Positions 8,057 to 51,055 of a DNA stretch of 64,000 bases are shown one piece after another. Both the position numbers and the translations under genes were made by a program. The notes under the pieces are model-generated. The model did not search any database, was not told where the DNA came from, and saw only the letters and a program-made list of their open reading frames with translations. Numbering within the stretch: position 1 is the stretch's first letter; every line of letters starts with the position of its first letter. The DNA is taken from positions 131,648 to 195,647 of the forward strand of contig JAHHHT010000012.1 in NCBI GenBank assembly GCA_019359235.1. Reading direction: 5' to 3'. The DNA is from Oscillatoria princeps RMCB-10. GTDB lineage: Bacteria; Cyanobacteriota; Cyanobacteriia; Cyanobacteriales; Oscillatoriaceae.

Positions 8057-8090
8057 AACCGGGTAACTTCTGCGAAACCCGGTTTCTGGC
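8057..8090. repeat. GAAACCGGGT...ACCCGGTTTC inverted-repeat element between convergent genes (likely bidirectional terminator)
   Basis: agaaaccgggt-aacttctgcga-aacccggtttct. Sits between the GNAT stop (8044) and the fasciclin stop (8112). Member of a dispersed palindromic family seen at six or more loci. Confidence 0.55.
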
Positions 8091-8111
8091 ACCCATTCAG
8101 TATCGATTGCC

Positions 8112-8705
8112 CTACATATTGGGCGGCAGAATCACCTTATCGATGACGTGGATGACGCCGTTGCTGGCTTCGATGTCCGCCGAAGTCACATTTGCCTGAT
8201 TCACCATCACCTTGCCGGCATCAACTTTAACCATGACGGAGCTGCCCTCAACCGTCGCCACGTCTCCCGACTGCAAGCTGCCAGACTTGACCGCACCGGG
8301 AACCACATGGTAGGTCAAAATCTTGACCAGTTTGTCTTTGTTCTCCGGCTTTAACAGCTCTTCCACAGTGCCCTTTGGCAAAGCGGCAAACGCTTCATCC
8401 GTGGGCGCAAAAACAGTGAACGGGCCTTTTCCTGCCAGGGTGTCCACCAAACCGGCAGCTTGCAAAGCCGCTGTCAGGGTCTTGAACGAGTCATTCTTGC
8501 TCGCGATATCCACAATGCTGGGGCTGGTCGCGGCTGCTGCAGGACCGGCGACCTCAACCTCGACGGCGGAGGTGGGGGACGCCGGCTTGCTGGCGCTGTT
8601 ACAGGACTTCGCCGAAACTGGCATGCTGAGCAAGAAACTGGCACCGGCAACTGCCACAAGGCCAGCTAGCTTTCCGCCCCAGGTTTTAACGTTCTTTACC
8701 TTCAT
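8112..8705 (-). CDS. fasciclin (FAS1) domain secreted protein
   Basis: Signal peptide. [17 protein letters not shown]...[11 protein letters not shown]...[13 protein letters not shown] are hallmark FAS1 motifs. Confidence 0.85.
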
Positions 8706-9055
8706 AGCTTCTGGTCTTCCTTGGCCCGAATTTTACAAATTGTAAACTTATGTTTCATTGTATATCATTTCCTGCCGTTCCGCACTGCCAACCGTGCCGG
8801 GAAAATTTTTCGCTTGCCTGAGTAGGAATACTTAGGCTGCCGGAGGGAACCCTTGTGCGGTTCGGATTCGGAGGAAGTGGGGGCTGGCGCATGCGGCGGC
8901 GGCGTGCGACCGCCGGCTGCCCCCTGAGGTGTTAAGCATTTAATTGTGCAGTTTCGACTGCTGTGGGGATGGGTTTAAGGTCAGAATGTTATAAAATTGA
9001 CTGTTTTTACTAAATAGGTTAAAGAGCAAGTTAAATGTGCATATCTCACCCCTGT

Positions 9056-9141
9056 CCCCTATACCCTAACCCCTAACCCCTAACCCCCAATCCCCAATCC
9101 CCAATCCCCAATCCCCAATCCCCAATCCCCAATCCCCAAAC
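9056..9141. repeat. STRR-like tandem heptamer array (CCCTAAC x3 then CCCCAAT x8)
   Basis: Direct tandem heptamers read in sequence. CCCCAAT matches the cyanobacterial STRR1 consensus CCCCA(A/G)T. Confidence 0.8.
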
Positions 9142-9294
9142 GCTGCTACAGCGTCAGGTTCTTCCTTATGGCAGATGGAACCCTAGAGGCAAATTGATAG
9201 GGTAGCAATGGGAACCAATACACTTCACATTGAAAGTGCGAGCGCCCCATTTATGTTTTAAGGGCAAAGTTATCAAAAGCAAGGAGAGAAAGTC

Positions 9295-9567
9295 ATGTGG
9301 GACATTATTGCTTGGATTGTCTTAGGTCTGATTGCTGGCGCAATTGCTAAAGCCATCTATCCCGGGAGCCAAGGTGGCGGTATGGTTGCCACCATCATTC
9401 TGGGTATTTTGGGCGCTGTGGTTGGGGGCTGGGTGGGCAGAATGCTGATAGGGACAAGCGCCGGCGCTTCCTACGGGGCGCTGACGCTGCCCAGCATTGC
9501 TTTGGCGGTGCTGGGTGCGATGATTGTCCTTTTCTTGTGGGGTTTGTTTACTCGCCGCGCCGCCTGA
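9295..9567 (+). CDS. GlsB/YeaQ/YmgE family (transglycosylase-associated) small membrane protein
   Basis: 90 aa, Gly-rich, two to three TM segments, motif GxxGAxxG. Good SD AAGGAGAG upstream. Confidence 0.8.
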   Translation: MWDIIAWIVLGLIAGAIAKAIYPGSQGGGMVATIILGILGAVVGGWVGRMLIGTSAGASYGALTLPSIALAVLGAMIVLFLWGLFTRRAA

Positions 9568-9662
9568 TAGCGACACTGTCCGTTCTGCGGGTTCGGATTT
9601 TTCACTCTCCCCCAGGCAGAGCGCTGGGGGAGCTTTCCGCTTGAGAATATGGAGGTAGTGCA

Positions 9663-9866
9663 ATGCCCTGGAGCGAAAACGACTATCCAGCCGCGCTCGA
9701 GAACCTCACCGAAGAGGTGAGGGACAAGGCCATTGAGATAGCAAATGCTTTACTGGAAGAAAAGGATTGCGATCGAGGTAGGGCGATTCCGATCGCTATC
9801 GCTCAAGCTGAGGAATGGGCCAGCCGGCGCGGCAAGCCGGTCAAACAGCGAGACTATACCGATTGA
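9663..9866 (+). CDS. small conserved hypothetical protein
   Basis: 67-aa ORF with a helical, charged, protein-like composition. No family assigned. Confidence 0.4.
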   Translation: MPWSENDYPAALENLTEEVRDKAIEIANALLEEKDCDRGRAIPIAIAQAEEWASRRGKPVKQRDYTD

Positions 9867-9926
9867 TGCTATTTTCTAATAAGTCAGCGTTCTGCGGCAA
9901 CCTCAACAAGCTTAAGGAAATAGAAA

Positions 9927-10718
9927 ATGCTGGAGCTATATCAATCTGAACTGTCCCCGCACAGCGAGAAAGTGCGGCTGATGCTGGACTACAAAGGGCT
10001 GGCGTACCGCAAAATTGAAGTGACACCGGGCGTGGGACAGCTAGAAGTCTACCGGCTCTCCGGTCAGCCCCAGGTGCCGGTGCTCAAGGACGGTAATGTA
10101 GTTGTAGCCGATTCTACAGAAATCGCCAAATATCTAGACCGGCAGTATCCAGACCGCCCCCTGATTCCCGCCGGTGACAAACAGCGGGGGCTGTGCCTGC
10201 TCATGGAAGAATGGGCGGACGAGTCGATTGGGGCGAAAAGTCAGACGCTGCTGTTTTCCGCCCTCAGCTCTGACGGGAGCTTCCGCAGCGCCCTCTTGCC
10301 ACCGGCAACCCCGGATTTCCTCAGAACCCTCGTGGAAGCCGTTCCGGGGGATCTGCTCAAGGCGCTCGGCACCGGCATCGGCGCGGGCTCTGACGCCGTG
10401 AGCGCCGCTATGGAAGCCATCAAGCAAGACTTGGAAGCCCTCTGCTTGCTGCTGCAAGACAGCCCCTATTTGGTGGGCTCCCAGCCGACTTTAGCAGATT
10501 TTGCCGTAGCTGGGCTGTCGATGTTCCTCAAGTTCCCAGAGGGACAGTATCTGGATATTCCAGAAAAGCTCAAAGGCAAAGGCGTGCCCGGAATTGCTGA
10601 CAATTCCCTCTACGCACCGTTTTTCTCCTGGCGAGATCGCCTTTATGACCAATATCGCCAACCCCTGATGCCCACCGGCACCACCGGCTCTGTGCCAACT
10701 TCGATTCAAATAGAATAG
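9927..10718 (+). CDS. glutathione S-transferase family protein
   Basis: N-terminal thioredoxin-like GST fold: LYQSELSPHSEKVRLML...VPVLKDGNVVVADSTEIAKYLD. Confidence 0.75.
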   Translation: MLELYQSELSPHSEKVRLMLDYKGLAYRKIEVTPGVGQLEVYRLSGQPQVPVLKDGNVVVADSTEIAKYLDRQYPDRPLIPAGDKQRGLCLLMEEWADESIGAKSQTLLFSALSSDGSFRSALLPPATPDFLRTLVEAVPGDLLKALGTGIGAGSDAVSAAMEAIKQDLEALCLLLQDSPYLVGSQPTLADFAVAGLSMFLKFPEGQYLDIPEKLKGKGVPGIADNSLYAPFFSWRDRLYDQYRQPLMPTGTTGSVPTSIQIE

Positions 10719-11153
10719 TGGGATTGGGGTGCGTGACGCCGGGGAAGCAACCTATTTCTGCGGGGAGATCGGGTGAGGCGCGCGCACCCTACCAGGGAGA
10801 ATAACAGGAGTGCGGTGCCAACCGAACCACGCGAACACACCTTATTGATGGGGTGCTTTGGGTGATGCAGAAGGCACCCAACCTCCGCAAGAGATCCCAC
10901 CGGCTGCAAAAAATGCCGGTGGGTTTTGAATTTTCAACCGCCTCCCCTGAAGCACCCCACGCCCTGACAAAGGGCGTTTCCCCTCGCTCCCCCGCTCCGT
11001 CAGGGAGCCAGCGAGGGGAGGAGCTGCCTCCCATTCTACCACAAGCCGGTTCAACCCCTGCTTCCTGTTTCCAGAGGGAAAAAACCTTACCTCTGCTAGC
11101 TAGAAAATCAAAATTGATCGTAAGATCAGCCAGAAGGTTGAGAGATTAGAGCG

Positions 11154-12884
11154 ATGAATCTAGACAAACCACTGGGCTCGGTTATTCAAGGTTCTCTCAG
11201 TGAAGGGGTGGAAGTCCGGCTGCATCCTGACATCTCCGTCGAAGAAATGCGGGTGGGCAAGTTTTTGGTGGTGCAAGGGGTGCGAGCGCAGTTTTTTTGC
11301 ATGCTCACCGATGTCATCCTGGGAACCTCTAGCCCCCGCATTCTCGCCGATCCCCCCCTCGCCAGCGACACTTTGCTGCAGGAAATTCTGGCGGGAAGCA
11401 GCACCTACGGCACCCTGCAGCTCGCCCTCATGCTGATGTTCACCCCACCAAACCCGGAAAAAGCCCTCCGCAACTCCGCCCTTCAGTCAAAAGCGAGCAA
11501 AGCAGCGAAATCGGGGCTGGCGTCGTTTGAGGCGCAAACCAGCAGTGACATCGAATTGCTGCCGGTGAAGACAATTCCCAGCCACTTCTCGCAGGTTTAT
11601 GAAGCCACCGAGGAAGACTTTCGCTGCGTTTTCGGTTGGGAAGACGATCCCTACCGGCGCAACTTCGCGATCGGAAAACCCCTTGACATGGACGTGCCGG
11701 TGTGTGTCGATCTCGACCGGTTCGTCGAGCGCAGTAACGGAGTTTTCGGCAAATCCGGCACCGGCAAGTCTTTTCTCACCCGCCTGCTGCTGTCTGGCAT
11801 TATCCGCAAGCAAGCGGCGGTGAATCTTATTTTTGACATGCACTCCGAGTATGGCTGGGAAGCCGTTTCGGAAGGCAAGCAGTGCAGCACTGTCAAAGGT
11901 TTGCGCCAGCTTTTTCCCGGTCAGGTTGAAATTTACACCCTCGACCCCATTTCTACAAAAAGTCGCGGCGTGCGCGACGCCCAAGAACTGTATCTGAGCT
12001 ACGACCAAATTGAGGTCGAAGATATCGCCCTGGTGCAGCGCGAGCTAAATCTTTCCGAAGTCGCCCTGGAAAATGCTTTGATTCTCCGCAACGAGCTTGG
12101 CAACTCCTGGATTAGAGAGCTGCTGCTGATGAGCAATGAGGAGATTCAGGAATTCTGCGAGACGAAGAAAGGAAACAAGGCTTCTATTGGGGCGCTGCAG
12201 CGCAAGCTCGTGCGTCTGGAGGATCTGAAATACATGCGCGAGAAGGGGTCTAAAAATTACATCAGCCAGATTTTGAACTCCCTGGATGCCGGCAAGCATG
12301 TTGTGATTGAGTTTGGCTCCCACGCGGATATGCTATCATACATGATGGTGACTAATATGATATCCCGCCGGATTCACGCTAGCTATGTGCGCAAGTCCGA
12401 GAAGTTTTTGCGCACGAAAAATCCCAACGAGCGCCCCCGACAGCTGGTGATTACTATCGAAGAAGCCCACCGCTTTCTCGACCCCACTATCGTCCGCTCC
12501 ACGATTTTTGGCACCATCGCTCGCGAGATGCGGAAATATTTTGTTACCCTTTTGATAGTCGATCAGCGCCCTTCGGGCATTGATAATGAGATTATGTCTC
12601 AGATTGGCACCCGCATCACCGCTTTGCTCAACGATCAAAAAGACATTGACGCCATTTTCACCGGCGTCTCCGGAGCCGCCGGTTTGCGCTCTGTTTTGGC
12701 CAAGCTGGATTCCAAGCAACAAGCACTGGTTCTCGGACACGCCGTACCGATGCCGGTGGTGGTGCAAACTCGCCCCTACGACGAAACCTTCTACAGGGAA
12801 ATTGGCGAGATGGATTGGGAAAATATGCCAACCGAACTTGTGATGGAAGAAAGTGAATCCGCTATGGCGGATCTGGGTTTCTAG
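11154..12884 (+). CDS. HerA/FtsK-like P-loop ATPase (DUF87-type), no partner nuclease nearby
   Basis: 576 aa. Walker A GKSGTGKSF. Walker B LVITIEEAHRF. Motif LIVDQRPSGID. N-terminal barrel-like domain. Confidence 0.7.
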   Translation: MNLDKPLGSVIQGSLSEGVEVRLHPDISVEEMRVGKFLVVQGVRAQFFCMLTDVILGTSSPRILADPPLASDTLLQEILAGSSTYGTLQLALMLMFTPPNPEKALRNSALQSKASKAAKSGLASFEAQTSSDIELLPVKTIPSHFSQVYEATEEDFRCVFGWEDDPYRRNFAIGKPLDMDVPVCVDLDRFVERSNGVFGKSGTGKSFLTRLLLSGIIRKQAAVNLIFDMHSEYGWEAVSEGKQCSTVKGLRQLFPGQVEIYTLDPISTKSRGVRDAQELYLSYDQIEVEDIALVQRELNLSEVALENALILRNELGNSWIRELLLMSNEEIQEFCETKKGNKASIGALQRKLVRLEDLKYMREKGSKNYISQILNSLDAGKHVVIEFGSHADMLSYMMVTNMISRRIHASYVRKSEKFLRTKNPNERPRQLVITIEEAHRFLDPTIVRSTIFGTIAREMRKYFVTLLIVDQRPSGIDNEIMSQIGTRITALLNDQKDIDAIFTGVSGAAGLRSVLAKLDSKQQALVLGHAVPMPVVVQTRPYDETFYREIGEMDWENMPTELVMEESESAMADLGF

Positions 12885-12900
12885 TAGGGGCGTGGGGTGT

Positions 12901-12995
12901 GGGCATCACGCAAAAGGGCATCACGCAAAAGGGCGATTGGGCATGGGTTGAATTATCAACTTTTCTTCTAAACCCTAACCCCTAAACCCTAAACT
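12901..12995. repeat. short tandem repeats: 17-mer GGGCATCACGCAAAAGG x2, then CCCTAA(A/C) heptamers
   Basis: gggcatcacgcaaaagggcatcacgcaaaagggcg at 12901-12935. aaaccctaacccctaaaccctaaac at 12961-12990. Confidence 0.6.
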
Positions 12996-13259
12996 CTGGC
13001 GTCCCACATTCGTGGGATGATAATGTATGTAGGGGCAGGCACAGGGGCGATCGGGGTCAACTTAAGAGCCGGGCGATGGAAAGAGATGCTGTTGGCGAAT
13101 CCGTGAGGGGTTAGGGAAGGGTTGGGGGCGGGTTTTTCGGCGTTGGGGCTGTGTGGGCACAGGTTGCCGGTGAGCCCCGCCCCTACATCCCTTTCCTGAT
13201 TTCCTCGTTCCGGGCTTCAGCTGGGAATGAGACAGAGTATTTCAACCGCCCAGTTCAAC

Positions 13260-14006
13260 TTAAGTTGACACTAATGGCACAGGGGCACTTTGGGAGCATC
13301 CCATTTTTGTAAGTGCAGCAGGCCGTATCCCTGTACGAATAAAGGTGCGCACCGAGAGACCTTCCCACAGCTGACCTGCATAGAAGGGCGAACTGTAGCT
13401 AAACGACGTGATATAGGGGCTATAAGCGGTCAGCTTACGCCCCGTATCGATCGCGGCTGCGGCTGACATATCTGCCAGAGCCAAATTGAGGTCGGGACCA
13501 TAGGTGAGCATCGCCACATGTTCCGTTTGGTATGTCGGGTCGTCGCGGCGCAGCTCCTGCTCATAATTATTGAGCGGCGGAGCGTAGATATATTTTGTCT
13601 GGTAGGGATTGAAGCTGGTCAGCACAGCAGTAAAGCCACATGCCTCAGCCAGCGCACGCAGACATGCAAAGTTATGCCTCAATTCTTCGACAGCCCCTTG
13701 AATACTTGGGTGAATCGTCGTGCGAATCTCAATGCCTTTGGGGTCAAAATGGAGCGGCGCACCAGTTTCAGAGAAGCGTTCGATACCCTCAATATACCAA
13801 CGTTTCTTGCGAATTACTGCATCTCCAACATAGAGCTGCGGGTAATCGCTGGGGTAAAGCGGCAATTGTGCAATAATGTGGTCGAGATCGGCAAAGGTAG
13901 CCGTCGTCCAATCAACAAATAGACCCGCACTATCGAGAAAAGCAACTTCGTGTTCAATTCCAAAAGTGAACATCATCAAATTCCGCTCGAAGTAACATCC
14001 AGGCAA
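13260..14006 (-). CDS. hypothetical protein, possibly GCS2-family carboxylate-amine ligase-like (C-terminally short)
   Basis: The N-terminus FTFGIEHEVAFLD resembles the YbdK/GCS2 motif FTLGIELE. At 248 aa it is shorter than typical and the C-terminal tail looks non-protein-like, so a frameshift or pseudogene is possible. Confidence 0.45.
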   Translation of the reverse strand: MPGCYFERNLMMFTFGIEHEVAFLDSAGLFVDWTTATFADLDHIIAQLPLYPSDYPQLYVGDAVIRKKRWYIEGIERFSETGAPLHFDPKGIEIRTTIHPSIQGAVEELRHNFACLRALAEACGFTAVLTSFNPYQTKYIYAPPLNNYEQELRRDDPTYQTEHVAMLTYGPDLNLALADMSAAAAIDTGRKLTAYSPYITSFSYSSPFYAGQLWEGLSVRTFIRTGIRPAALTKMGCSQSAPVPLVST

Positions 14007-14050
14007 GCGAATATGCGCTCTAGCGATTCTCTATAATTTGGATAAATATC

Positions 14051-14174
14051 AGAAACCAGGTTGGTTTGATAACCCGGGTTTCTGGGGGCTGACTTATTGT
14101 CCCATTCTTTTATACCGGCTCTCATATTAGTGAGGTACTTAGAAACCCGGTTTCTTTAAGAAACCGGGTTTCCC
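14051..14174. repeat. cluster of three GAAACC(C)GGGTTTC palindromic elements
   Basis: agaaaccaggttggtttgataacccgggtttct at 14051-14083. agaaacccggtttctttaagaaaccgggtttccc at 14141-14174. Confidence 0.6.
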
Positions 14175-15250
14175 GGACGTAGTTCATCCAACTGAGAACC
14201 GCTATATGTCGGCTTGCTTAACCGTAAGCCCGCAGATCTGCGGGCGCGAATTAGCAACAAATTTTATATCAAATGTGTCTCACTAGAAAATGCGACTGGT
14301 AACAAACTTCGCCGCCCGGATAATAATATAGCGCGGTATAAATCTGAGTGAGAGTCCACCGGCTCGCTGCCGGTGGGGTGCCGCCCTCTCAGCTGCCGGT
14401 ACCTGCCCCTTGGCAGAAATTTTTGCCAAAAATAGCATGCCGGCTGCCAATTGTCAATCCCCCCGCCCTCTGACAGCAGCGCCGCTTTTGCTGGCTGGCG
14501 CAACGAAACGTCGGGGAGCAGGTTGAGCAATCTCACCGTCTGGTTATCACCCTATTTCCAGCCGCCACAGGTTCGGCAATCGCGAGCCAGTGGGACTTCC
14601 CAGTTGCCGGTGGGTAGGTCATCATAGGAATAAGGAGGATTCTACAGTGTCAGTAGTTTGTCATACAGAAAGATTTTCCTGCCAACGTGGCTACACTCTC
14701 AGCTGCTATTAAGCCAGAATTGGACAGATGTTGCGTGTCAGGTCTGTAGAAGCCCCCATGTTACCCACAGCAGACTCGCCGCAAGCGAAGTGGCTGGCTG
14801 CCTCCGATCGGGGCGGCCAAAGCGGGAGGCAGCGGCCTTCAGAGTGCCTGCATGTCAGCGTTTCCTCATTTAGGAGACTGTCTGCAAATCTACCCTGCGG
14901 GGGATTCGCCCCAGAGCCTTTTCCAATTATATGTAGAAAAGCTTAATTTTACCGGCATTTTGGGGAAAGCTTAAGAATATAAGAGTTGAGGAGCAACCCC
15001 TGACTGTTTACAGGCGTCTAAATGTGGAATACTATAGAAGAAGGCAAACTCATACCGACTTCGAGTTTTAAGCACCTGTCACCCCGTACTGTCTGTTGCC
15101 GGTGTGGCGGCCAGGGGTGGCCGCCTGAGCGCTAAACCGACGCGAGCGAGCTTCTCACAGCTTCAACCGACTGAAACGCGCTCTCCTGCCCTGAGAGTGG
15201 GGCAGGTGAATGAACCTTTAATTTCTATTTAGGGAGTTCACGACTCACTC

Positions 15251-17162: not shown

Positions 17163-17167
17163 CCCCC

Positions 17168-18431: not shown

Positions 18432-18473
18432 GCGGAGAAGGGAGAAAGCAGAAAGTAGGGGCACCCACAAGGG

Positions 18474-19778
18474 GTGCCCCTGCATCCTTTAAACTGGCAA
18501 GCAGCAGGTTATGAATCTGGGAAGAAGGCCATGTTGCCGGTATTAGAAGCGGAGTCAATCATTTTCAAGTTAGTGCAGCCTCTCGATGCCGGGCGGGATG
18601 TCGAGGTGGTGGACTTGCTTTCAGCAAACGGTCGCATTTTAGCCGTGCCGGTGAGCAGCGACCTCGATTTTCCCCACTGGGACAATTCCGCGATGGACGG
18701 GTATGCGGTGCGATATGATGATGTGGCCGGCTGCAGCGCTTCGCAACCGGCAACCCTGGATATTATAGAGGAAATTCCCGCAGGTGTCAAGCCCCGCTGG
18801 GAAATTCAGCCCGGGCAAGCGGCGCGAATCCTCACCGGCTCGATGATGCCGGCGGGTGCGGATACGGTGGTGATGCAGGAGGAGACGCGGCGGGAGGGCT
18901 CTCGCGTGTTTATCTTGGCCGCACCGGCACAGCGCGGGGCTTGCGTGCGCCACCGGGGGTGTTTCTACAAGGCGGGGACACCGCTGCTGCCCGAGGGCAT
19001 CGCCCTGGGGGCACCGGAAATAGCCGTGCTGGCTCAGGGGAGGTTAGCGATTGTGCCGGTGTGGCGGCGTCCGAGGGTGGCGATTCTCTCCACCGGCAAT
19101 GAGTTGGTGACGCCCGACCAGCCCCTGCAACCGGGCCAAATTGCCGACTCCAACCAGTACGCTCTGGCTGCTGCAGTGGCTAGTGCCGGCGGAGTGCCGG
19201 TGCCCCTGGGCATTGTTGAGGACGATCCGCAGGCGCTCGCAGAGGCAATTGCGCGAGCGGTGGCGGGCGCGGATATGGTGCTGTCCACCGGCGGCGTCTC
19301 TGTGGGGGATTACGATTACGTCGAGGAAATTCTCGCTCAGCTGGGAGCGGAAATTCACATCGGGTCTGTGGCGGTCAAACCGGGCAAACCCCTGACTGTA
19401 GCTAAATTTTCGCCGTCAGGCACCCAGCCCGCAGTCTTGTACTTTGGGCTGCCGGGAAATCCGGTTTCAACCTTGGTGACGTTTTGGCGGTTTGTCGGGC
19501 CGGCGCTGAAAAAGCTGGCCGGTCTGAAAGACGGTTGGGGGCCGGTATTTGTGCGGGCGCGTTCGCGACAGGAGTTGCGCTCGGATGGCAAGCGGGAATC
19601 TTACCTGTGGGGGAAGCTGCAATTAGTCGATGGCGCTTGGGAGTTTGAGCTTGCCGGTGGGAGTCACAGTTCTGGGAATTTGATTAATTTGGCGCTGTGT
19701 TCGGGTCTGGCGGTGGTGCCGGTGGGTGAAACGCTGATTCCGGCTGGAGAGCCGGTGCTGGTTATGCAGGTGGGATGA
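18474..19778 (+). CDS. moeA: molybdopterin molybdotransferase MoeA (gephyrin E-domain-like)
   Basis: MoeA motifs NSAMDGYAV, GADTVVMQE, LSTGGVSVGDYDYV, GLPGNPVS. The start may be at MLPVLE (18531). Confidence 0.85.
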   Translation: MPLHPLNWQAAGYESGKKAMLPVLEAESIIFKLVQPLDAGRDVEVVDLLSANGRILAVPVSSDLDFPHWDNSAMDGYAVRYDDVAGCSASQPATLDIIEEIPAGVKPRWEIQPGQAARILTGSMMPAGADTVVMQEETRREGSRVFILAAPAQRGACVRHRGCFYKAGTPLLPEGIALGAPEIAVLAQGRLAIVPVWRRPRVAILSTGNELVTPDQPLQPGQIADSNQYALAAAVASAGGVPVPLGIVEDDPQALAEAIARAVAGADMVLSTGGVSVGDYDYVEEILAQLGAEIHIGSVAVKPGKPLTVAKFSPSGTQPAVLYFGLPGNPVSTLVTFWRFVGPALKKLAGLKDGWGPVFVRARSRQELRSDGKRESYLWGKLQLVDGAWEFELAGGSHSSGNLINLALCSGLAVVPVGETLIPAGEPVLVMQVG

Positions 19779-21843: not shown

Positions 21844-21877
21844 AGAAACCCGGTTTCTTAAAGAAACCGGGTTTCTA
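21844..21877. repeat. tandem pair of GAAACCCGGTTTC palindromic elements
   Basis: agaaacccggtttcttaaagaaaccgggtttct. Confidence 0.6.
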
Positions 21878-22004: not shown

Positions 22005-22110
22005 CTTGGAGGGTGCCTTCCTCCTAGGAGGAAGGCACCCTACTTCTGCTTCAGCTGCAAGTATGGCTCTTGTAGTTCCCCCAAGGGGGAACGCACCCTA
22101 CTTATGCTCC
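22005..22110. repeat. two perfect hairpins, each followed by the GCACCCTACTT motif
   Basis: GGGTGCCTTCCTCC-TA-GGAGGAAGGCACCC at 22005-22036. GTTCCCCC-AA-GGGGGAAC at 22076-22093. Both are followed by gcaccctactt(c/a)tgc. Confidence 0.6.
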
Positions 22111-22184
22111 CGGCGAGCGCCAGCGATTGAGCTATATTTTACCGCACAATTAAATTTACTCTAAAATTAAATCCTTAACCCTGT

Positions 22185-41791: not shown

Positions 41792-41869
41792 AGGCATTTT
41801 AGATTTTAGAGTTTAGATTTTAGATTTTAGATTAAATTTACTTTTTAGGCTCTGAAATCTAAAATCTGA

Positions 41870-43012: not shown

Positions 43013-43155
43013 CGGTGGCCGGTGAGGGTGGCCACGGGGGGCCGGTGAGCCACTCTTTGCCGGTGAGGGCGGCCACTCTTTGCCGGTGAGGGCGGCCACT
43101 CTTTGCCGGTGAGGGCGGCCACTCTTTGCCGGTGAGGGCGGCCACGGGGGGCCGC
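43013..43155. repeat. tandem array of about six 23-bp units (CCGGTGAGGGCGGCCACTCTTTG)
   Basis: Four perfect units at 43060-43150 plus variants. ORFs 42867..43145 and 42874..43122 only translate this array. Confidence 0.8.
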
Positions 43156-43444
43156 CCCTACAGCTTCTGGCTCTGGTTGCGAGACCGCCGGCGAAAGATT
43201 ACGTTGGATTAATTGCTTAAATTTAAAACCGCCAAGACGCGCCTGTTCGCCAATGAGGAAAAAGAAAGAGGGAGAGGGACATAAAAATTAATAGGGGCAA
43301 TTGACCGGAATAGATAGTTTGAGAGGCTGGCGAGGGGAGAAGCGTGCCGGCTGTCACCCAAGAGGATTGACCGGCACCCCCGGACTGAATCAGCCGGTCG
43401 CACCTGGGTCACGCACCCTTTGACTGCGGGCTGTCCCCTGCGGG

Positions 43445-43515
43445 CCGCCGAAATATAGGTGAAAATAAGCATAGCCAGCAATCTTTTGCCTTGCCAATCG
43501 GATGAAACAATATGA
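43445..43515. repeat. copy B of the about-70-bp duplicated upstream module
   Basis: ccgaaatataggtgaaaataagcatagccagcaatcttttgccttgccaatcggatgaaacaat, immediately before the ATG at 43512. Confidence 0.6.
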
Positions 43516-44240
43516 GCAATACGAGTAATTTCCGCCAAGCCATGCGGGAGGCCAAATACCAGCCGCTGGTCGGCCCGAATGTGATTGCCAACGCCCTGCC
43601 CTACCTGGGGGGCGGACTTGTCCTAACCGCTGCCGGCACCTACGGCGGGCTGAGGGTTTTAAGTGCCAACCCGGCACTGTTCATGCCCACTTTCTGGGTG
43701 GCCCTCGTTTTAAACTTAGTCCTGTTCTTTGTGGCCCAGAGGGTGGCCGCACAGGCCAGCAACAGCGCCGCTCTGCCCCTGCTGGCCACTTACAGCCTGC
43801 TGACCGGCTACACCCTCACCGGCTTGGTGTTCCTGGCCTTGCGGACAGCGGGAGTTGGCCTGCCTGGAGTGGGGTTTGCCGCCTTGGGGTGCGGCGTCAC
43901 CTTTATCGCCGCCCGCCAAATTGGCTCCAACCTGTCGGAAGAAGACGGCATGGCTGTCACCCGAACGGTACAGCTCGGCATCATTGCCCTGCTGGTCGTG
44001 CTACTTGGTCAATTATTGCTTTCCGTGTTTGGGGTTTACACGCCCACCTGGCTGGAAGTTGCCATCTCCGGCGTGGGGGTGTTTCTGTTTGCCGGTGCGG
44101 CGGTGGTTGACTTTTTTGTCCTTCCTCGCACCTATGGCAACGATCAGTATCTGAGCGCCGCCCTGTCGATGTATCTGACATACATCAACCTGTTTATTTT
44201 CATCTTGCGGTTGCTGATCGCCCTCAATAGCAGGGATTAA
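43512..44240 (+). CDS. Bax inhibitor-1/YccA family membrane protein
   Basis: 242 aa, 7-TM. N-terminal motif and overall hydrophobic pattern typical of BI-1/YccA. Confidence 0.65.
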   Translation: MSNTSNFRQAMREAKYQPLVGPNVIANALPYLGGGLVLTAAGTYGGLRVLSANPALFMPTFWVALVLNLVLFFVAQRVAAQASNSAALPLLATYSLLTGYTLTGLVFLALRTAGVGLPGVGFAALGCGVTFIAARQIGSNLSEEDGMAVTRTVQLGIIALLVVLLGQLLLSVFGVYTPTWLEVAISGVGVFLFAGAAVVDFFVLPRTYGNDQYLSAALSMYLTYINLFIFILRLLIALNSRD

Positions 44241-44308
44241 TCCCACAGGGGCGGGGCAGGCAGCAGATTCGGGCCGAATCTTGCACAACGCCTGCGATCC
44301 CCCCCTTA

Positions 44309-44372
44309 CCCCCCCCTTAAAAAGGGGGGGAATAAGAAAATAGCCCCCCTTTTTAAGGGGGGTTGGGGGGAT
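44309..44372 (+). terminator. two G/C-homopolymer hairpins downstream of the BI-1 gene
   Basis: CCCCCCCCTTAAAAAGGGGGGG at 44309-44330. CCCCCCTTTTTTAAGGGGGG-TTGGGGGGAT at 44345-44372, the same family as the element inside copA. Confidence 0.55.
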
Positions 44373-44493
44373 AGAAAGCAAGTAGTGCCGGTTGCGCGGT
44401 TGAGCTCAACCCACCAAAATATCCAGGAAATGTGCTATAATGCTGATTGCGGTCAGGTCCTTAGTGTGACTCCCTATCAGGGATTGAAAGGCA

Positions 44494-45616
44494 ATGGAAG
44501 TCCTAGACATCAAACGCGAAATCGAAACGCTGTCGTATCGCCTGGGGAAAACCCAGGACTATCTTTGACATCCCCGCACTGACAGCCCAAATTCAAGACC
44601 TGGAGCAGCTGGCGGCTCAACCGGCCTTTTGGGACGAGCAAGCCGCCGCCCAACAGACGCTGCAAAAACTTGACGAACTGAAATCCCACTTGCAGCAATA
44701 CGACCGCTGGCGAACCAGTCTGGAAGACGCAATGGCTGTTTTGGAACTGCTGGAGGTCGAACCCGATCAGGCGCTGCTGCTTGAGGCGGAAACTAATATA
44801 ACCCAGCTCAACCGCGAACTCGACCAGTGGGAGCTGCAACAGCTGCTGTCCGGGACATACGACGAAAAAGGTGCGCTGCTGACCGTAAATGCCGGTGCCG
44901 GCGGCACAGACGCTCAAGACTGGGCAGAGATGCTGGTGCGGATGTACACCCGCTGGGGGGAAAGTCGCGGTTACAAGGTGCACCTGACCGAAATTTCGGA
45001 GGGGGATGAAGCGGGAATTAAGTCCGCTACCCTGGAAATCGCCGGTCGGTACGCCTACGGCTACCTGAAGGCAGAGAAAGGAACCCACCGGCTGGTGCGG
45101 ATTTCCCCGTTTAATGCCAACGGCAAGCGGCAAACCAGTTTTGCCGGCGTGGAAGTGATGCCGGCAATCGACACCTCGGTGCATCTGGACATTCCAGAGA
45201 AGGATTTGGAAATTACCACCTCCCGCGCCGGCGGTAAGGGCGGGCAGAATGTCAACAAGGTGGAAACCGCTGTGCGGATTGTTCACATCCCCACCGGCAT
45301 TGCGGTGCGCTGTACCGAGGAGCGCAGCCAGCTGCAAAATAAAGAAAAAGCCCTGGCTATCCTGAAAGCCAAATTGCTGATTATCGCTGTTGAGCAGCGG
45401 GCCAAGGAAATTGCCCAGATCCGCGGGGACATAGTGGAAGCGGCTTGGGGCAACCAGATCCGCAACTATGTGTTCCATCCTTACCAATTGGTTAAGGATC
45501 TGCGCACCGGCGTGGAAACCACCGCAGTCACCGACGTGATGAACGGCGAACTCGACCCGTTTATCGAAGCTTATCTGCGCCAGGAAAACCAGATTGCCCA
45601 AAGCCAGCCGGCATAA
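44494..45616 (+). CDS. prfB: peptide chain release factor 2, with programmed +1 ribosomal frameshift
   Basis: ORF0 [24 protein letters not shown] ends at CTT TGA C (44563-44569), the classic RF2 shift site. The +1 frame continues into track ORF 44690..45616. SPF and GGQ motifs are present. Confidence 0.9.
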
Positions 45617-45861
45617 TACCCTCGTTTGAGCTAAATACCCTAAATGCTGCAACCCTCTTGACAAAGAGGGTTGCTCTGTTATATAAATAGCGCAAAATTT
45701 AATGATTCTTTAGCGGTGGCAGAGCAGATACAGCAAGGGTTGTCAAGACTTTTTACAGTATCGCTCACACTGCAAATGGGTATCAGATTTAACCGAAGTT
45801 ACCGGGATCGCTCCCGGGAGCTAGGTTTGGAAGCTTCGCTTTTGGAACAAGGTGTTTTGCC

Positions 45862-46842
45862 GTGACTCATCCTCGTGTTATCTGCCTCGGTGAAATTTTG
45901 TTTGATTATCTGGCTGACCAGCCCGGGCACTCCCTAAAGCAGGTTGAGTCTTGGACACCCTATCCGGGAGGCGCACCGGCCAATGTGGCCTGCGCTCTAG
46001 CCAAGTTGGGGACGGCGGCGGGATTTATCGGCTGTGTGGGCCAAGATGACCCCGGGGACTCCCTGGTGCGGGTGCTGTCTCAAGCCGGTGTGGATGTCAC
46101 CGGCATCCAGCGCCACAAAACAGCACCCACAAGGGCAATTTACGTCGTGCGCTCACACACCGGCGAGCGGGAGTTTGCCGGTTTTGGCGAGCGGGACACC
46201 GGAGAATTTGCCGATACCTATCTCCAGAGCGACCAGTTGCCAGAGGAACTGTTTGAAAATGCTGAATTTCTGGTTTTGGGCACTCTGGAACTGGCTTATC
46301 CCCACAGCCGCAAGGCGATCTACCACGCCCTGCATCTAGCCGAGCAGCACTACGTCAAAATTGTGCTAGATGTTAATTGGCGACCGGTGTTTTGGCCCGA
46401 CCCCGCCGATGCTCCCCAGCTGATTCTGGATCTGCTGCCTCACGTCGATTTCCTCAAGCTTTCCGAAGACGAAGCTGAATGGCTCTTGGGCGCGACAGAT
46501 GCCAGTTCCATCTCCCACAAGCTCGACTCAGTGGAGGGTGTGCTGATCACCGCCGGCGAGCACGGTTGCTCCTACTGTCTGGGAGACACCTGCTCGCAGG
46601 TGCCGGCTTTCCCTGTTAAGGTGGCAGACACCACCGGCGCAGGGGATGGCTTTGTTGCCGGTTTTATCCACATGCTGTGCCAGCATGGGATTGGGATTCT
46701 GGAAGACGAGCAGATGGCGAAAAAGGTCGTCACCTATGCCAGTGCGGTGGGGGCGCTGACGGCGACTAAACCGGGTGCCATCGCCGGTGCACCTGATGCC
46801 GGTGAGGTGGAAGCTTTCTTGCACAGCAGCGCAGTTCACTAG
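45862..46842 (+). CDS. PfkB-family carbohydrate kinase (fructokinase-like)
   Basis: N-terminal ICLGEILFDY...GGAPANVA. C-terminal TTGAGDGFVAGF motif. Confidence 0.8.
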   Translation: MTHPRVICLGEILFDYLADQPGHSLKQVESWTPYPGGAPANVACALAKLGTAAGFIGCVGQDDPGDSLVRVLSQAGVDVTGIQRHKTAPTRAIYVVRSHTGEREFAGFGERDTGEFADTYLQSDQLPEELFENAEFLVLGTLELAYPHSRKAIYHALHLAEQHYVKIVLDVNWRPVFWPDPADAPQLILDLLPHVDFLKLSEDEAEWLLGATDASSISHKLDSVEGVLITAGEHGCSYCLGDTCSQVPAFPVKVADTTGAGDGFVAGFIHMLCQHGIGILEDEQMAKKVVTYASAVGALTATKPGAIAGAPDAGEVEAFLHSSAVH

Positions 46843-46853
46843 CTGAAGCGGTA

Positions 46854-46889
46854 AGAAACCGGGTTTCTTTGGGAAAAACCCGGTTTCTA
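46854..46889. repeat. tandem pair of GAAACCGGGTTTC palindromic elements after the fructokinase gene
   Basis: agaaaccgggtttctttgggaaaaacccggtttct. Confidence 0.6.
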
Positions 46890-46963
46890 GTATGACTGCG
46901 ATCCGCCACCGCCTTTGAGCGGTTTTAAATTTTGTTAAATCGTTCAGTGAGAAAAATAGGAGA

Positions 46964-47045
46964 CTGATGGCGACTCAACCGGGTGCTATCGCCGCCGCAA
47001 CTAATGCCGGTGATTTGCAAGCTTTCCCGCAGCGCGATTCACTAG
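46964..47045 (+). pseudogene. duplicated fragment of the fructokinase 3' end (about 82 bp, about 80% identical to 46758-46842)
   Basis: ctgatggcgactcaaccgggtgctatcgccgc...cactag aligns with ctgacggcgactaaaccgggtgccatcgccgg...cactag. Followed at 47066-47080 by another agaaaccgggtttct element. Confidence 0.55.
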
Positions 47046-47423
47046 AGCGCCAGTCTTGAAATCTCAGAAACCGGGTTTCTTTTGGCAATTACGACGTAAA
47101 ATCGGTCTTGAAAGGGAGAGAAACCCGTTTTCTTAACCCCAGACAAAATCGATGCAACCGGCTTGATATAACCGGCTCCCTGAAATGCCAAACTCGGGTA
47201 TTTTTATCGCCAATCGACTCTTATATAGCAGTTCTAAATGATTTGTGAAATCCTCTCTCTTTTCTTGACTTGGCGCTCTACCCTGCGGGAAGCCGCTTGC
47301 GCGTCTATGGCGTCTTGGCGGTAAAAAAATTCACAAATCAATTCTAACCGCTACAGCTCAAAATTACAAATTCCAATGGGCTCCCGCCGGCCAGTGGGGT
47401 GCGCCGCAGCGCACCCTGCTGTA

Positions 47424-48743
47424 TCACAGGAATTCGCGGGGGTCGGTGACGAAGCCGGTGAGCGCCGAAGCTGCTGCAGTATACGGCGAGGCGAGATAAA
47501 TTTGCGCTTCCTTATTTCCCATCCGCCCTGGGAAATTGCGGTTGGTGGTGGAAACACAAACCTCTGGCTCATTCAGACGCCCAAAAGTATCCTTGGGTCC
47601 GCCCAAACAAGCGGCGCAAGAAGGTGCAGCCGGCTCAATGCACCCAGCAGCTAGGAAAATTTCCGACAGAGTTTGCCCCTCGTATTTCTGTGCGAACAAA
47701 TCTTCGTAGACTTTTTGGGTTGCCGGCACCAGATAAGTGGGCACCTTCACCTGACGCCCCTTCAGAATGCGGGCGGCGTTAATAAAGTCAGAAGTTTTGC
47801 CGCCGGTGCAAGAACCGATATACACTCGGTTTATCTTGACATCGCGGCATTCTCGTGCTAAGGCGCGATTGTCCGGAGAGTGGGGCTTGGCGACCACCGG
47901 CTCCAATGTGGAGACATCGCAGTGCCACGAACTGTAGAACTTGGCGTCCGCATCGGTGTACACCGGCTCAAACGGCTTGTCAGTGCGGGCGCGGACATAT
48001 TCAAAAGTCGTTTCATCCGGGGCGATGGTGCCATTTTTGCCGCCGGCTTCTATAACCATATTGCACAGCGTCATCCGCTCTTCCATCGACATGCGCCGCA
48101 CAGCTTCGCCGGCAAACTCTATCGTCCGGTAGTTGGCACCGGACACCGTAATATCCCCGATAATTTGCAAAATCAGGTCTTTCGCCAGCAGGTAAGGAGG
48201 CATTTCGCCGTCGAGGACAAAGCGCATCGTCGCCGGCACCTTAATCAGCAGCTTGCCGGTGCCGAGGATAAAGGCGGCGTCGGTATTGCCGATGCCGGTG
48301 GCGAACTCGCCGAACGCACCGGCATTGCAAGTGTGCGAATCGGTGCCAAACAGCACTTCTCCCGGACGGGTGTGACCCTCTTGTGCCAGGGCGATGTGAC
48401 AGACGCCCTTATAATCCGGGTTAGCCTTAAAGTTCGACCGGTCTGTGATGTCGTAGAAATATTTGATCCCCTGCTCTCGGGCAAAATCGCGCAGAATATC
48501 GACATTGCGGTTAGCCCGCTCGTCGGCGGTGAAGATATAGTGGTCGGGAATCAGAACAATCTTCTCCGGGTCCCAGACTTTGGCGTCCGAGCCAAATTCC
48601 CGCTTGAACACCCCGATCGTGCCCGGACCGCAGACATCGTGGGTCATCAGAAGATCCACGTTCACCCAGATATTCTCACCCGGTTCCACAGCAGACCGGC
48701 CCGCAGCTCTGGCCAATATTTTTTCGGTGAGGGTCATCCCCAT
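47424..48743 (-). CDS. leuC: aconitase-family dehydratase large subunit (LeuC/HacA-like, short archaeal-type)
   Basis: 439 aa. MTLTEKIL...MTHDV N-terminus. Fe-S Cys motifs SCTGG and TTNRNFPGRMG. Confidence 0.75.
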   Translation of the reverse strand: MGMTLTEKILARAAGRSAVEPGENIWVNVDLLMTHDVCGPGTIGVFKREFGSDAKVWDPEKIVLIPDHYIFTADERANRNVDILRDFAREQGIKYFYDITDRSNFKANPDYKGVCHIALAQEGHTRPGEVLFGTDSHTCNAGAFGEFATGIGNTDAAFILGTGKLLIKVPATMRFVLDGEMPPYLLAKDLILQIIGDITVSGANYRTIEFAGEAVRRMSMEERMTLCNMVIEAGGKNGTIAPDETTFEYVRARTDKPFEPVYTDADAKFYSSWHCDVSTLEPVVAKPHSPDNRALARECRDVKINRVYIGSCTGGKTSDFINAARILKGRQVKVPTYLVPATQKVYEDLFAQKYEGQTLSEIFLAAGCIEPAAPSCAACLGGPKDTFGRLNEPEVCVSTTNRNFPGRMGNKEAQIYLASPYTAAASALTGFVTDPREFL

Positions 48744-49062
48744 AGCACAACTCCAGCGCAGACGCTCCGCGCATTCCTTTAATGAAACAGCACACTATCT
48801 ATAGTAGTGGTGGCGTCGAGCCTCTGCTTGAAGCCCGGGATTGCCGGTGAAAATCAGCGCCCCTACGCCGGCGGGCAGGAAATTGCACGACTTGCGCACG
48901 ACTTGCACACGACTTGCGCATTTTAACCATCCCCCGGTCGGGGAGTTCTGGAGCCGGCGATCTTAGCGAGATCAGGAGCGGGGGGACAGCATTTCTTCCT
49001 TGTTGTTTGTTCCAAGCTGTTTGTTGCTTGTTCCTTCTGAGAGGGACGCCCAACCCGGGATT

Positions 49063-50724
49063 TTAAGGAGCAATGGTGAGTTGACCGGCAGCGAGATTGC
49101 TGACAGCGCGTTGCATGGCAGCCAGAGCCCGATTGTAGCCCAGAATCGCCTGCACCCGGTTGCCTTCGGAGCGGCTCAGCTCGTTTTCTGCAGAGATCAC
49201 GTCGCTCTGGGTGCCCACACCGGCCTGAAATCGCAACCGCGCCAAACGCAGGGCTTCCGTAGACTGCCGCACCTCCACAGAAGCGGTTTGAATATTTTCA
49301 AAATTAGCTCGCAAGTTGTAATAGGCTTGTTCCACGTCGAAGCGAACCTGGTTGCGCTGGGAAGCAAACTGAGTTTCCGCGATGTCCTTGTTTCTTTCCT
49401 CCTGGGTAGCTCTGGCTCTGGCAGCTCCGCCATCGAACAAATTCCACCTCAACCGGGCTCCCACTGCGTAGCCACCGGCAAAGCCCACGCTATCGTCCAA
49501 GTTATTGACCAGATCGTATCGGCCAAAGACACTGACTTGCGGGCCGGTATTGGCCAGAGCCGCCTGTCGCTGGGCGTCGCTAACTTCCCGCTGAACCAAC
49601 TGCTGTTCCAGCTCGGAGCGGTTCTTAAACGCCTGCACGATGCTGTCTTCCAGGGAGAGGTTCCAAAAACCGGCGACTTCCACGGGGTCTGCGGCTGAGA
49701 GATCCACCGACTGGGACAAACTGAGCAGCTGAGCCAGCCGGCGGCGTCTGATTCGCTGATCGCCCCGGCCTTGAGTGAGATTTTGCAGCTCGTTGGCCAG
49801 CTGAACCTGGGAGCGCAGCACGTCAAATCGGGTTCCCACACCGGCTCGTTCCAGGGATTCGGCATCCTTCAAGCTCTGCTGGGCGTTTCTCACAGAAGAC
49901 TCGCTGATGCGGACTTGCTCGTCGGCTTCCTGCAGGTCGTAGTAAGCGTTGGAGACATCCAGCCGCAACTGCTCGTCGATGCGCTCGAGTTCTAGCTGGT
50001 TGAGCCGCACCTGTTTTTCTGCAGCCCGGATGGTAGCAGACCTGCGTCCGGAGGTGTAGACGTCGTAACTCAGTTCCAGCTGGCCATTAAGGCTTCTGCT
50101 GACGGTATCTCCTTGCGGCACCCCTTCTGGCGCATTCAGATTTTGCAGCCGCCCTTGGGCGGAATCCGTGCGGGTGAGGTCGCTGGCCAGATTCAGGGAG
50201 GGATATTCAGCGGCGACGGCTTCTCGCAGGGCGGCGCGAGACCGCTCCACTTGCAGGTAGGCCACCTGGAAGTCTCGATTGTTGCGCCGCGCCAGTTCGA
50301 GCGCCTGTTTCAAGGTGATTGGCTGGGTGCCCTGGATCTGGACTTCCTGCGGTTGGGTGGGAAACTGGAGGGGATTGGGGCTGGGGTTGAGGTAGCCCGG
50401 AGCCGGTGTTTCCTGAAGCTTGTCTGCAGGCTTGGGTGAGGGAGTCTGCGGGGGGGCTGGAGGCACCGCTTCACGCTGAGTTTGGCTGCCACTGCCGCCG
50501 GCGGGTTGCTTGTCAATGCTTGGCAAGGTGTCGGCTGCAGCCGGTGAGGGTGGGGCGGATGGGGCGGACCCGGCGGGTTGGAAATCTTTGCCCGCTGGGG
50601 GTGGGGCTCCTGCAGGTGAACCGGCTGGGGAGGTGGGTGCTGTCTGGGAAGCACCGGGCTGCATATTGCTTAGGGCGATTATTACTCCGGTGCCGGCAGC
50701 TATCAGGTGACGAAAGGTTAGCAT
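49063..50724 (-). CDS. TolC-family outer-membrane efflux protein with Pro-rich N-terminal linker
   Basis: Two TolC-like repeat halves (LTLKQALELA..., LSLEDSIVQAFKNRSELEQ...). Track ORF to 50772; the probable start is MLTFRHL (50724). Confidence 0.8.
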   Translation of the reverse strand: MLTFRHLIAAGTGVIIALSNMQPGASQTAPTSPAGSPAGAPPPAGKDFQPAGSAPSAPPSPAAADTLPSIDKQPAGGSGSQTQREAVPPAPPQTPSPKPADKLQETPAPGYLNPSPNPLQFPTQPQEVQIQGTQPITLKQALELARRNNRDFQVAYLQVERSRAALREAVAAEYPSLNLASDLTRTDSAQGRLQNLNAPEGVPQGDTVSRSLNGQLELSYDVYTSGRRSATIRAAEKQVRLNQLELERIDEQLRLDVSNAYYDLQEADEQVRISESSVRNAQQSLKDAESLERAGVGTRFDVLRSQVQLANELQNLTQGRGDQRIRRRRLAQLLSLSQSVDLSAADPVEVAGFWNLSLEDSIVQAFKNRSELEQQLVQREVSDAQRQAALANTGPQVSVFGRYDLVNNLDDSVGFAGGYAVGARLRWNLFDGGAARARATQEERNKDIAETQFASQRNQVRFDVEQAYYNLRANFENIQTASVEVRQSTEALRLARLRFQAGVGTQSDVISAENELSRSEGNRVQAILGYNRALAAMQRAVSNLAAGQLTIAP

Positions 50725-50842
50725 AGGTTTTTGATTCGCTCTGCAGTGTAAGACACATCCAGGTTCGGGCAAACCACCTTAAGCAGAATAGCAGTTCCTA
50801 CCTAGCCACTGGCTTACTGGGGCTACCGGCTCAATCCGGGAC

Positions 50843-51055
50843 AGAAACCAGATTTCTTTGAGAAACTTGGTTTCTAGTGGCCACTCAGGCGCGGAGTTGG
50901 CCACAGGGCGTCTCCAGGCGGAGGCGGGAGAGAAATCAGATTTCTTTGAGAAACTTGGTTTCTAGTGGCCACCCAGGCGCGGAGTTTCCCACAGGGCGTC
51001 TCCAGGCGGAGGCGGGACAGAAACCAGGTTTCTTTGAGAAACCCGGTTTCTTGTT
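50843..51055. repeat. 2.4 tandem copies of an 88-bp unit built from GAAACCnGnTTTC palindromes
   Basis: Units at 50843-50930, 50931-51018 and partial 51019-51055. Confidence 0.8.

Follow-up and report, generated by a model that had tools for sequence, protein, structure and literature searches.

In the 64,000-nt stretch of Oscillatoria princeps RMCB-10 DNA analyzed here (the window, to whose full length all coordinates refer), copies of a short palindromic repeat lie between ordinary chromosomal genes, with no transposase among the genes that flank them. [quoted passage not shown] We find that the repeat consists of inverted pairs of a 15-nt palindrome, each pair forming one hairpin, and that it recurs in three phyla; both this nested anatomy and the cross-phylum spread lay beyond the view of the earlier annotation. 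The window loci are probably copies of a single family of very small, non-coding, REP/REPIN-like repeats that are untagged, are or once were mobile, and give rise to hairpins at gene 3′ ends.

For comparison we used syntenic loci of Oscillatoria sp. PCC 10802 (L110 and L112; ~91% nucleotide identity) and of a third species (L116-118). The window contains the following copies and carriers:

8054..8087 (units 8054-8068 and 8073-8087), unstranded: decayed doublet with a 12-bp stem, between convergent genes
14051..14083, unstranded: decayed doublet AGAAACCAGGTTGGT-ttg-ATAACCCGGGTTTCT, within a segment (12891-14274) that is missing from L116
14111..14206, unstranded: 96-nt MITE with terminal inverted repeats TATACCGGCTCTCA ... 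TGAGAACCGCTATA and an intact core at its apex
14141..14173, unstranded: intact 33-nt core of the C..G type with loop TTA, at the center of the 96-nt MITE
21844..21876, unstranded: perfect 33-nt core (-31.8 kcal/mol, z -7.5), between divergent Ser/Thr kinase and GT2-TPR genes
46854..46888, unstranded: doublet 12 nt past the PfkB stop codon; its loop has 5 nt and its stem one mismatch
47066..47133 (units 47066-47080 and 47119-47133), unstranded: split doublet whose arms pair across a 38-nt loop; inverted repeat I19
50837..51051, unstranded: 88-bp tandem array (Tandem Repeats Finder: 2.4 copies, 92% identity) with three cores

Structure of the repeat

When up to two mismatches are allowed, the window has 31 strand-hits to AGAAACCGGGTTTCT, where shuffling predicts 0.05, and the palindrome is present at all six loci reported earlier. 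The 16-mer AGAAACCCGGGTTTCT, with its CCCGGG center, had been put forward as the motif; it has zero matches in the window even with two mismatches, and the unit is therefore 15 nt long, AGAAACC-N-GGTTTCT (7+N+7). Window matches at 2322 and 19455 are chance matches, the latter falling within the MoeA gene. Across copies, the module is a 13–15-bp palindrome, (A)GAAACC-N-GGTTTC(T), whose sole asymmetric base is the central N, and nearly every copy is an inverted doublet of it. The window holds nine doublets, with unit pairs offset by 18–20 nt at 8054/8073, 14051/14069, 14141/14159, 21844/21862, 46854/46874, 50843/50861, 50931/50949, and 51019/51037; the central bases of these pairs are C..G, G..C, or A..T.

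Are the paired units tandem copies, as originally described? A cross-genome scan with one genome per species and the query GAAACCNGGTTTC-N(3-9)-GAAACCNGGTTTC yielded at least 108 loci holding 124 doublets, and all doublet statistics given here refer to these listed matches. The central bases are complementary in 114 of the 124 doublets (C..G in 84, A..T in 15, G..C in 13, and T..A in 2), with T standing opposite A in 15/15 doublets and C opposite G in 13/19. The pairs are therefore inverted, not tandem, and each pair is one hairpin. Three loci also read differently from their first description: the palindrome with an 11-nt loop at 8057-8090 is a decayed doublet at 8054-8087, the three copies at 14051-14174 resolve into two doublets (14051-14083, decayed, and 14141-14173, intact within a MITE), and what was taken for one copy plus a degenerate one at 47066-47134 represents the two arms of one doublet with a 38-nt loop.

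In its usual form the element spans 33 nt and folds into a perfect hairpin: its stem has 15 bp, and its 3-nt loop varies, the middle loop base being free. The spacer of a doublet is usually 3 nt, rarely 5–7 nt, and ~38–41 nt in split doublets. For intact window copies the folding energy is -23 to -32 kcal/mol (z -3.8 to -7.5), and the decayed and split copies fold more weakly (-17 to -24 kcal/mol, z -1.9 to -2.9). Comparison with Rfam covariance models gave nothing at gathering score, only chance matches to miRNA hairpins (E > 1). The rough density in the window, ~1 copy per 5–7 kb, extrapolates to about a thousand copies in the 8.6-Mb genome.

The hairpin ends abruptly. In 114 of 127 flank pairs the flanks do not extend the stem at all, the mean extension being 0.2 nt compared with 0.44 nt in shuffles, and among the listed copies no conserved bases were found outside the flanking A and T. 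Because the flanks do not prolong the palindrome, we rejected insertion into the apex of pre-existing hairpins. Nor was a target-site duplication seen, in that direct repeats of 2–8 nt are absent at all three boundary definitions. In a looser folding test, flanks formed at least 20 mutual pairs in 46% of copies versus 25% of shuffled controls, an excess that is due to MITE-borne copies.

The 88-bp tandem array, which had been recognized at first sight, lies between the stop codon of a histidine kinase gene and the start of an OEP (TolC-like) gene. Each of its cores (50843-50875, 50931-50963, and 51019-51051) is followed by a 55-nt spacer that is itself hairpin-forming. A CRISPR array was considered and rejected: the two 55-nt "spacers" are 94% identical, and the array is therefore a plain tandem duplication.

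Position relative to genes

All true copies in the window are intergenic. This preference also holds over the listed loci, where 99 of 124 doublets (~80%) are intergenic although only ~20% of the DNA is. The cores that could be assigned to spacers (n = 115) are distributed 48/53/14 among convergent, tandem, and divergent spacers, compared with 24/62/28 expected by length (chi-square p = 1e-7), and core density is four times greater in convergent than in divergent spacers. Cores in convergent spacers lie a median of 25 nt from the nearest stop codon; in tandem spacers, the medians are 64 nt from the upstream stop and 170 nt from the downstream start, a difference that is not significant. Divergent spacers thus hold half, and convergent spacers twice, the number expected by length. 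Since copies are depleted between divergent genes, the earlier suggestion of a protein-binding element is disfavored in the form of a transcription-factor operator.

Three window loci lie 10–19 nt past a stop codon. Besides the doublet that follows PfkB, these include the 8054-8087 doublet, 10 nt past the GNAT stop codon and 25 nt past the fasciclin stop codon, and the split doublet at 47066-47133, 19 nt past the stop codon at which a second, remnant pfkB-like gene ends. The core at 21844-21876 lies ~20 nt upstream of a conserved promoter-like site. In other genomes, cores bracket purL, purF, purT, and tRNA genes.

Carriage by MITEs and copies within genes

The 14111-14206 element has ends TATAGCGGTTYTCA...TGARAACCGCTATA that form 14-nt terminal repeats, with TA at both ends. 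It has all the features of a MITE: terminal inverted repeats, a target duplication, no coding capacity, and presence/absence at orthologous sites. The 96-nt MITE is found in PCC 10802 and L116 at sites that are empty in the window, and the reverse is seen at other sites. The idea that the palindrome is a MITE therefore stands for this element and for the many copies elsewhere that occupy MITE centers; the 33-nt core has no target-site duplication and is therefore not itself a MITE.

The core is at the exact center of at least four MITE families with differing terminal repeats and target duplications. Further ends found around a central core in other genomes are TATAGCAATCCTAAAT, CAATACGGTTCAGTTAAG (with 9–10-bp duplications), and AGAGCCTATCCCAAAACC, and in a fifth family (ATCTTGCACC) the two units are split by 39 nt. 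The same ends also recur with different inner sequences (L065, L007, and L042). Since unrelated MITE ends surround one core and the same ends enclose other interiors, the core is a shared module and does not derive from one MITE. In high-GC Chloroflexota and Planctomycetota, copies are mostly solo.

That copies always lie between genes, as first proposed, is true of the window, but outside the window genome a few cores, a small minority of copies, are in frame inside real genes. A caspase-STAND-WD40 protein (L006) has two adjacent cores in its nSTAND1 NTPase domain; in an Anaerolineae oxidoreductase resembling xanthine dehydrogenase (XDH; L026 1303-1335), one core sits in the linker joining its two Mo-cofactor domains; a DUF1015 protein (L103) has one core; and the adenylation domain of a non-ribosomal peptide synthetase (L088) contains a whole MITE plus its duplication, 39 codons in all. 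The element spans 11 codons with two of three frames open, and in-frame copies translate as ETRFLxETGFL or KPGF... At the position of the core in the XDH linker, 30 homologs have other fillers or a shorter linker. This linker is hypervariable among homologs (P0242-P0270), where short repeat-derived peptides such as SPCLPVSLSTRLP and TNLPIYQS are found, and these sequences suggest that repeats are especially prone to insert there in frame.

Taxonomic spread

The listed matches come from ~30 cyanobacterial species (Oscillatoriales and Nostocales), 16 Chloroflexota, and 4 Planctomycetota. Core-bearing loci have a GC content of 60%–68% in the non-cyanobacterial genomes versus 41%–55% in the cyanobacterial ones, and over this whole range, 41%–68% GC in three phyla, the 26–30 specified bases are unchanged. 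Could mis-binned cyanobacterial contigs account for the cross-phylum matches? We exclude this, since the non-cyanobacterial loci have their own GC level and lineage-specific variants, Anaerolineae having A..T centers and Gemmataceae a 7-nt loop as well as direct 20-nt arrays; one non-cyanobacterial locus sits on a 1.9-Mb contig. At L027 6086-6165 and L098 5959-6051 (Gemmataceae), we observed two cores directly 3′ of a tRNA gene and, separately, a direct 13-mer tandem array with a 20-nt period that reaches the contig end.

The distribution is patchy. The related Oscillatoriales L119 and L120 lack the unit in 21 kb each, where about four copies would be expected. Viral contigs and plasmids gave no matches to the element, and a literature search for the core sequence returned nothing relevant.

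Conservation and turnover at orthologous sites

The core at 21844 has orthologs in L112 and L116. Its center is G..C in L112 (PCC 10802) and C..G in the other two species, a double compensatory change. The 46854-46888 doublet has an ortholog with identical imperfections in PCC 10802 (L110 10993-11027). At 8054, the orthologous copy in L116 (3909-3941) is better preserved, with ~five changes distinguishing the two within the copy and none in the flanks. In place of the three cores of the window array, PCC 10802 has a single core (L110 18958-18990); the array has therefore grown or shrunk in one genome relative to the other. For L119-L121, which are more distant relatives, and for the XDH homologs, intergenic DNA and linkers have diverged too far to be aligned for empty sites.

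These genomes also differ in other segments. Of the second pfkB-like gene, intact in PCC 10802 (L110 11300-12322), only the last ~80 nt remain in the window (46941-47047); this apparent duplicate of the pfkB 3′ end is a gene remnant and no part of the repeat element. PCC 10802 has ~3 kb extra (L110 12349-15344) before an aconitase-family gene; one gene in this extra DNA carries Pfam domains of the shikimate-kinase (SKI) and AAA-type kinase families. A 3.3-kb block of the window (51172-54528), containing a histidine kinase, an OmpR-type response regulator, and small open reading frames (ORFs), is missing from the syntenic PCC 10802 locus; its left edge is ~120 nt from the core array. The 1.4-kb segment that L116 lacks (12891-14274) carries a YbdK/GCS2-like ligase remnant ORF (13260-14006) together with two core-bearing elements. 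Although this ORF adjoins three units, it was rejected as a "REPtron" gene, since it is no more than what is left of a YbdK-like ligase.

When ORFs from the 108 listed loci were clustered all against all, no recurrent neighbor gene emerged, only generic families (ABC, WD40/TPR, response regulators, histidine kinases, and pentapeptide proteins). Genes that lie between two cores are housekeeping genes: purL, purF, purT, and adenosine deaminase. One Uma2 (DUF820) nuclease gene is flanked by two cores (L058) and was considered as a partner, but only 4 Uma2 ORFs occur in ~1 Mb. Cyanobacterial genomes contain, as a rough figure, ~50 Uma2 genes each. As 4 in ~1 Mb is about the rough expectation, we dropped this lead. 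Six-frame ORFs from ~1 Mb of core-bearing loci contained no match to a Y1 transposase, a weak test that took IS608 TnpA and E. coli RayT as its probes.

Discussion

What kind of repeat is this? REP-type repeats are usually species-specific and tied to REP-associated tyrosine transposases (RAYTs) via a GTAG tag. Like the REP/BIME/REPIN and RAYT systems of E. coli, Pseudomonas, and Stenotrophomonas, which are 20–40-nt extragenic hairpins present in hundreds of copies and as inverted doublets, our element is biased toward gene 3′ ends, forms clusters and arrays, and is associated with insertion sequences and MITEs. It differs from them in having no 5′ GT[AG]G or CGTC tag, in that its units are 3 nt apart and each palindromic, in that one sequence spans three phyla, and in that no RAYT was found near copies. 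A REP-like element remains the best fit, given the high copy number, extragenic location, hairpin formation, inverted doublets, and 3′-end bias. Of the terminator suggested by the first-pass annotation, the REP-like traits and the 3′-end position were borne out; a RAYT-type tag, a U-tract, and a hit in the terminator scan were not found. Di Nocera et al. set "untagged" palindromic repeats apart (PMC3733652), and it is with these that the element belongs, as a REP-like element of a kind for which we found no description.

Other short repeats resemble it in part. The small dispersed repeats SDR1-8 of Nostocaceae, described by Elhai et al. in 2008, are reportedly also nested within larger repeats. 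Like our element, they are well under 100 nt, dispersed in filamentous cyanobacteria, and have no known mobilizing enzyme. SDRs are reported as 21–27 nt and confined to Nostocaceae (PMC5861425). By that description the element would differ, as it is 33 nt long and occurs in Oscillatoriales, non-Nostocaceae Nostocales, Chloroflexota, and Planctomycetota.

Inverted pairs of DNA uptake sequences (DUS) and uptake signal sequences (USS) in Neisseria and Haemophilus, and the mycobacterial TRIT, also represent a conserved hairpin sequence reused downstream of genes and frequent between convergent genes. They share with the element the reuse of one conserved hairpin just past genes, often convergent ones, but none of them extends beyond one family or genus, an uptake role and non-palindromic units are known for DUS and USS, and nothing ties the element to competence. 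Rickettsia palindromic elements are 100–150 nt long and mostly genic, lying in frame inside genes. Translated in-frame copies in real genes are a point of likeness, although the element is only 33 nt and its genic copies are a small minority. Bacterial MITEs such as Nezha, Correia/NEMIS, ERIC, and RUP match the 14111-14206 element and its relatives in terminal inverted repeats, TA or 9–10-bp duplications, and presence/absence; the 33-nt core differs from them in lacking a target duplication and in serving several unrelated MITE families as their common central module.

Most likely, the element is a small mobile or once-mobile hairpin whose presence at gene 3′ ends is tolerated and may be of use. 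It would spread, or would have spread, as tiny non-autonomous DNA without target-site duplication, traveling both alone and in the apex of MITEs from several unrelated families, as their cargo, and may have crossed phylum boundaries together with a putative protein that recognizes a duplex of two-fold symmetry. Transcription from either strand would yield the same strong hairpin, which could act as a 3′-end structure, whether a weak bidirectional terminator, an mRNA stabilizer, or an insulator. Judged by position, a terminator role is plausible; a proper U-tract is lacking. The complementarity of the arms may be kept by selection on the hairpin or may reflect doublet formation by inverted copying of one unit.

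Several observations weigh against this interpretation. Solo cores are kept at orthologous sites between species that are ~10% diverged, and among the compared syntenic loci there is no clean filled-versus-empty site for a solo core, so that we infer independent mobility from copy number and unrelated contexts only. Some copies, for example that at 8054 in comparison with L116, decay as fast as or faster than their flanks, and any selection on individual copies is therefore weak. No candidate for a mobilizing gene was found near copies. With regard to a 3′-end role, no T-run follows the element, its only U-rich stretch being the UUUCU of its own outer stem; a terminator scan that found classical terminators of the genome did not report the cores, apart from partial mini-stems; and 14 of the 115 spacer-assigned cores lie between divergent genes, where termination makes little sense. 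The gene calls behind the positional statistics are, moreover, crude longest-ORF calls.

How do other explanations fare? One is that the palindromes are host-selected, non-mobile binding sites of a sequence-specific homodimeric protein, such as an architectural or nucleoid protein, a gyrase acting at BIME-like sites, or a loader resembling ParB or KorB. A 15-bp palindromic unit with a free central base has the classic shape of a dimer site, its sequence is invariant over genomes of 41%–68% GC, three species share the copy that lies between two divergent promoters, and a preference for convergent spacers would fit relief of supercoiling. Independent dimer sites do not need complementary centers, yet 114 of the 124 listed doublets have them; with copies also present within MITEs, tandem arrays, and coding regions, close relatives that lack the element, copies that decay, and no candidate protein found, we think this explanation unlikely. 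Another explanation is that solo cores are leftovers of carrier MITEs or were copied out of MITEs by recombination, as the central position of the core in at least four MITE families, the restriction of presence/absence between species to MITE-borne copies, and the frequency of flanks with at least 20 mutual pairs (46% versus 25% in shuffled sequence) might suggest. But solo cores are sharp-edged, with no trace of terminal repeats or linkers, one core occurs in MITEs with unrelated ends while the same ends occur with other interiors, and the high-GC Chloroflexota and Planctomycetota copies are mostly solo, all of which make such an origin quite unlikely.

We regard a canonical REP/REPIN family mobilized by a RAYT (TnpA-REP, an HUH Y1 transposase) as very unlikely, despite the REP traits of the element (extragenic, palindromic, in inverted doublets, and high in copy number) and the occurrence of RAYT subclasses 2.4, 2.7, and 2.8 and class 3 in Cyanobacteria and Planctomycetes, where they are patchy in a manner consistent with horizontal transfer (PMC6006769). 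The element lacks a foot of the GT[AG]G, CGTC, or CnGA kind; the REPs given for RAYT subclass 2.4 in cyanobacteria are GTAGGG-type (PMC6006769); GTAG hairpins form a separate family in the window; and no Y1-like ORF was detected in the ~1 Mb of core-bearing loci, subject to the weakness of that test. Ordinary intrinsic terminators that arose in place, with the shared sequence incidental or convergent, would explain the position just past stop codons and between convergent genes and the GC core with A-rich and U-rich arms, as in bidirectional terminators. By our own estimate from collection size, only ~0.001 chance matches are expected in the whole collection, there is no U-tract, and copies occur in MITEs, arrays, and genes; since identical stretches of 26–30 bases in three phyla are not convergence, this highly improbable explanation is close to refuted. 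Most improbable of all is a DNA uptake sequence, for which one might cite the inverted pairs just downstream of genes and the high density of a short, invariant sequence. The unit is itself palindromic, unlike known uptake sequences, its density is ~1 per 6 kb rather than ~1 per kb, and it is cross-phylum yet missing from close relatives and carried in MITEs.

If the element is a REP-like repeat that moves or once moved, what recognizes it? One tentative proposal, which we consider doubtful, is that the invariant 13–15-bp duplex, as a double-stranded DNA unit or the stem of an extruded hairpin, is the recognition site of a putative, horizontally transferred, non-RAYT protein. Such a protein might copy or move 33-nt hairpins without target duplication; the hairpins might seed MITEs, by providing a central fold-back for any transposon ends, and colonize gene 3′ ends and protein linkers in three phyla. 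If so, REP-like systems would gain a new class, separate from the super-families tagged GTAG and CGTC. The set of traits is unusual: the repeat is untagged, constant at 26–30 bases over three phyla, missing from some close relatives, and at the center of several unrelated MITE families. Together, these traits point to a partner that is sequence-specific and passes from phylum to phylum, and also suggest that small hairpins help to create or stabilize MITEs. Were the element merely a decaying selfish repeat, our findings would be useful for annotation and for little more.

There are also practical consequences. The element appears to break short-read assemblies, as Logan contigs with window genes end near copies, and within ORFs it may be mistaken in annotation for ETRFL..ETGFL peptides. 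A Logan contig of 2746 nt (SRR11678154; L109) carries the window pfkB gene and stops ~250 nt past it in the core-bearing spacer, which suggests repeat-driven fragmentation.

Other repeats

A second palindromic family in the window genome consists of REP-type hairpins with a GTAGGG foot, for example GTAGGGTGCCTTCCTCCTAGGAGGAAGGCACCCT; copies lie at 22010-22046 (minus strand), 18450-18488, and ~22085-22115. In L101 (759-871), a GTAGGG-footed hairpin replaces half of a core inside a MITE. Short GGCATCACGCA(A/T) repeats, tandem in places, are present in the window at 12900-12935 and in L112 at ~14700-14900 and 18830-18860, and are far commoner in PCC 10802 intergenic DNA. Heptamer runs at 12968-12996 and 41796-41867 of the window (CCCTAAA/CCCCTAA and TTTTAGA-type) are similar to the STRR repeats that filamentous cyanobacteria carry; the latter run forms an inverted repeat. 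Another nested palindrome lies at 44311-44362, where the perfectly complementary 19-nt arms CCCCCCTTAAAAAGGGGGG and CCCCCCTTTTTAAGGGGGG, 14 nt apart, are each nearly palindromic. Finally, the purL gene of Oscillatoria sp. Prado101 (L084 1452-5246) has an intein that contains a LAGLIDADG domain.

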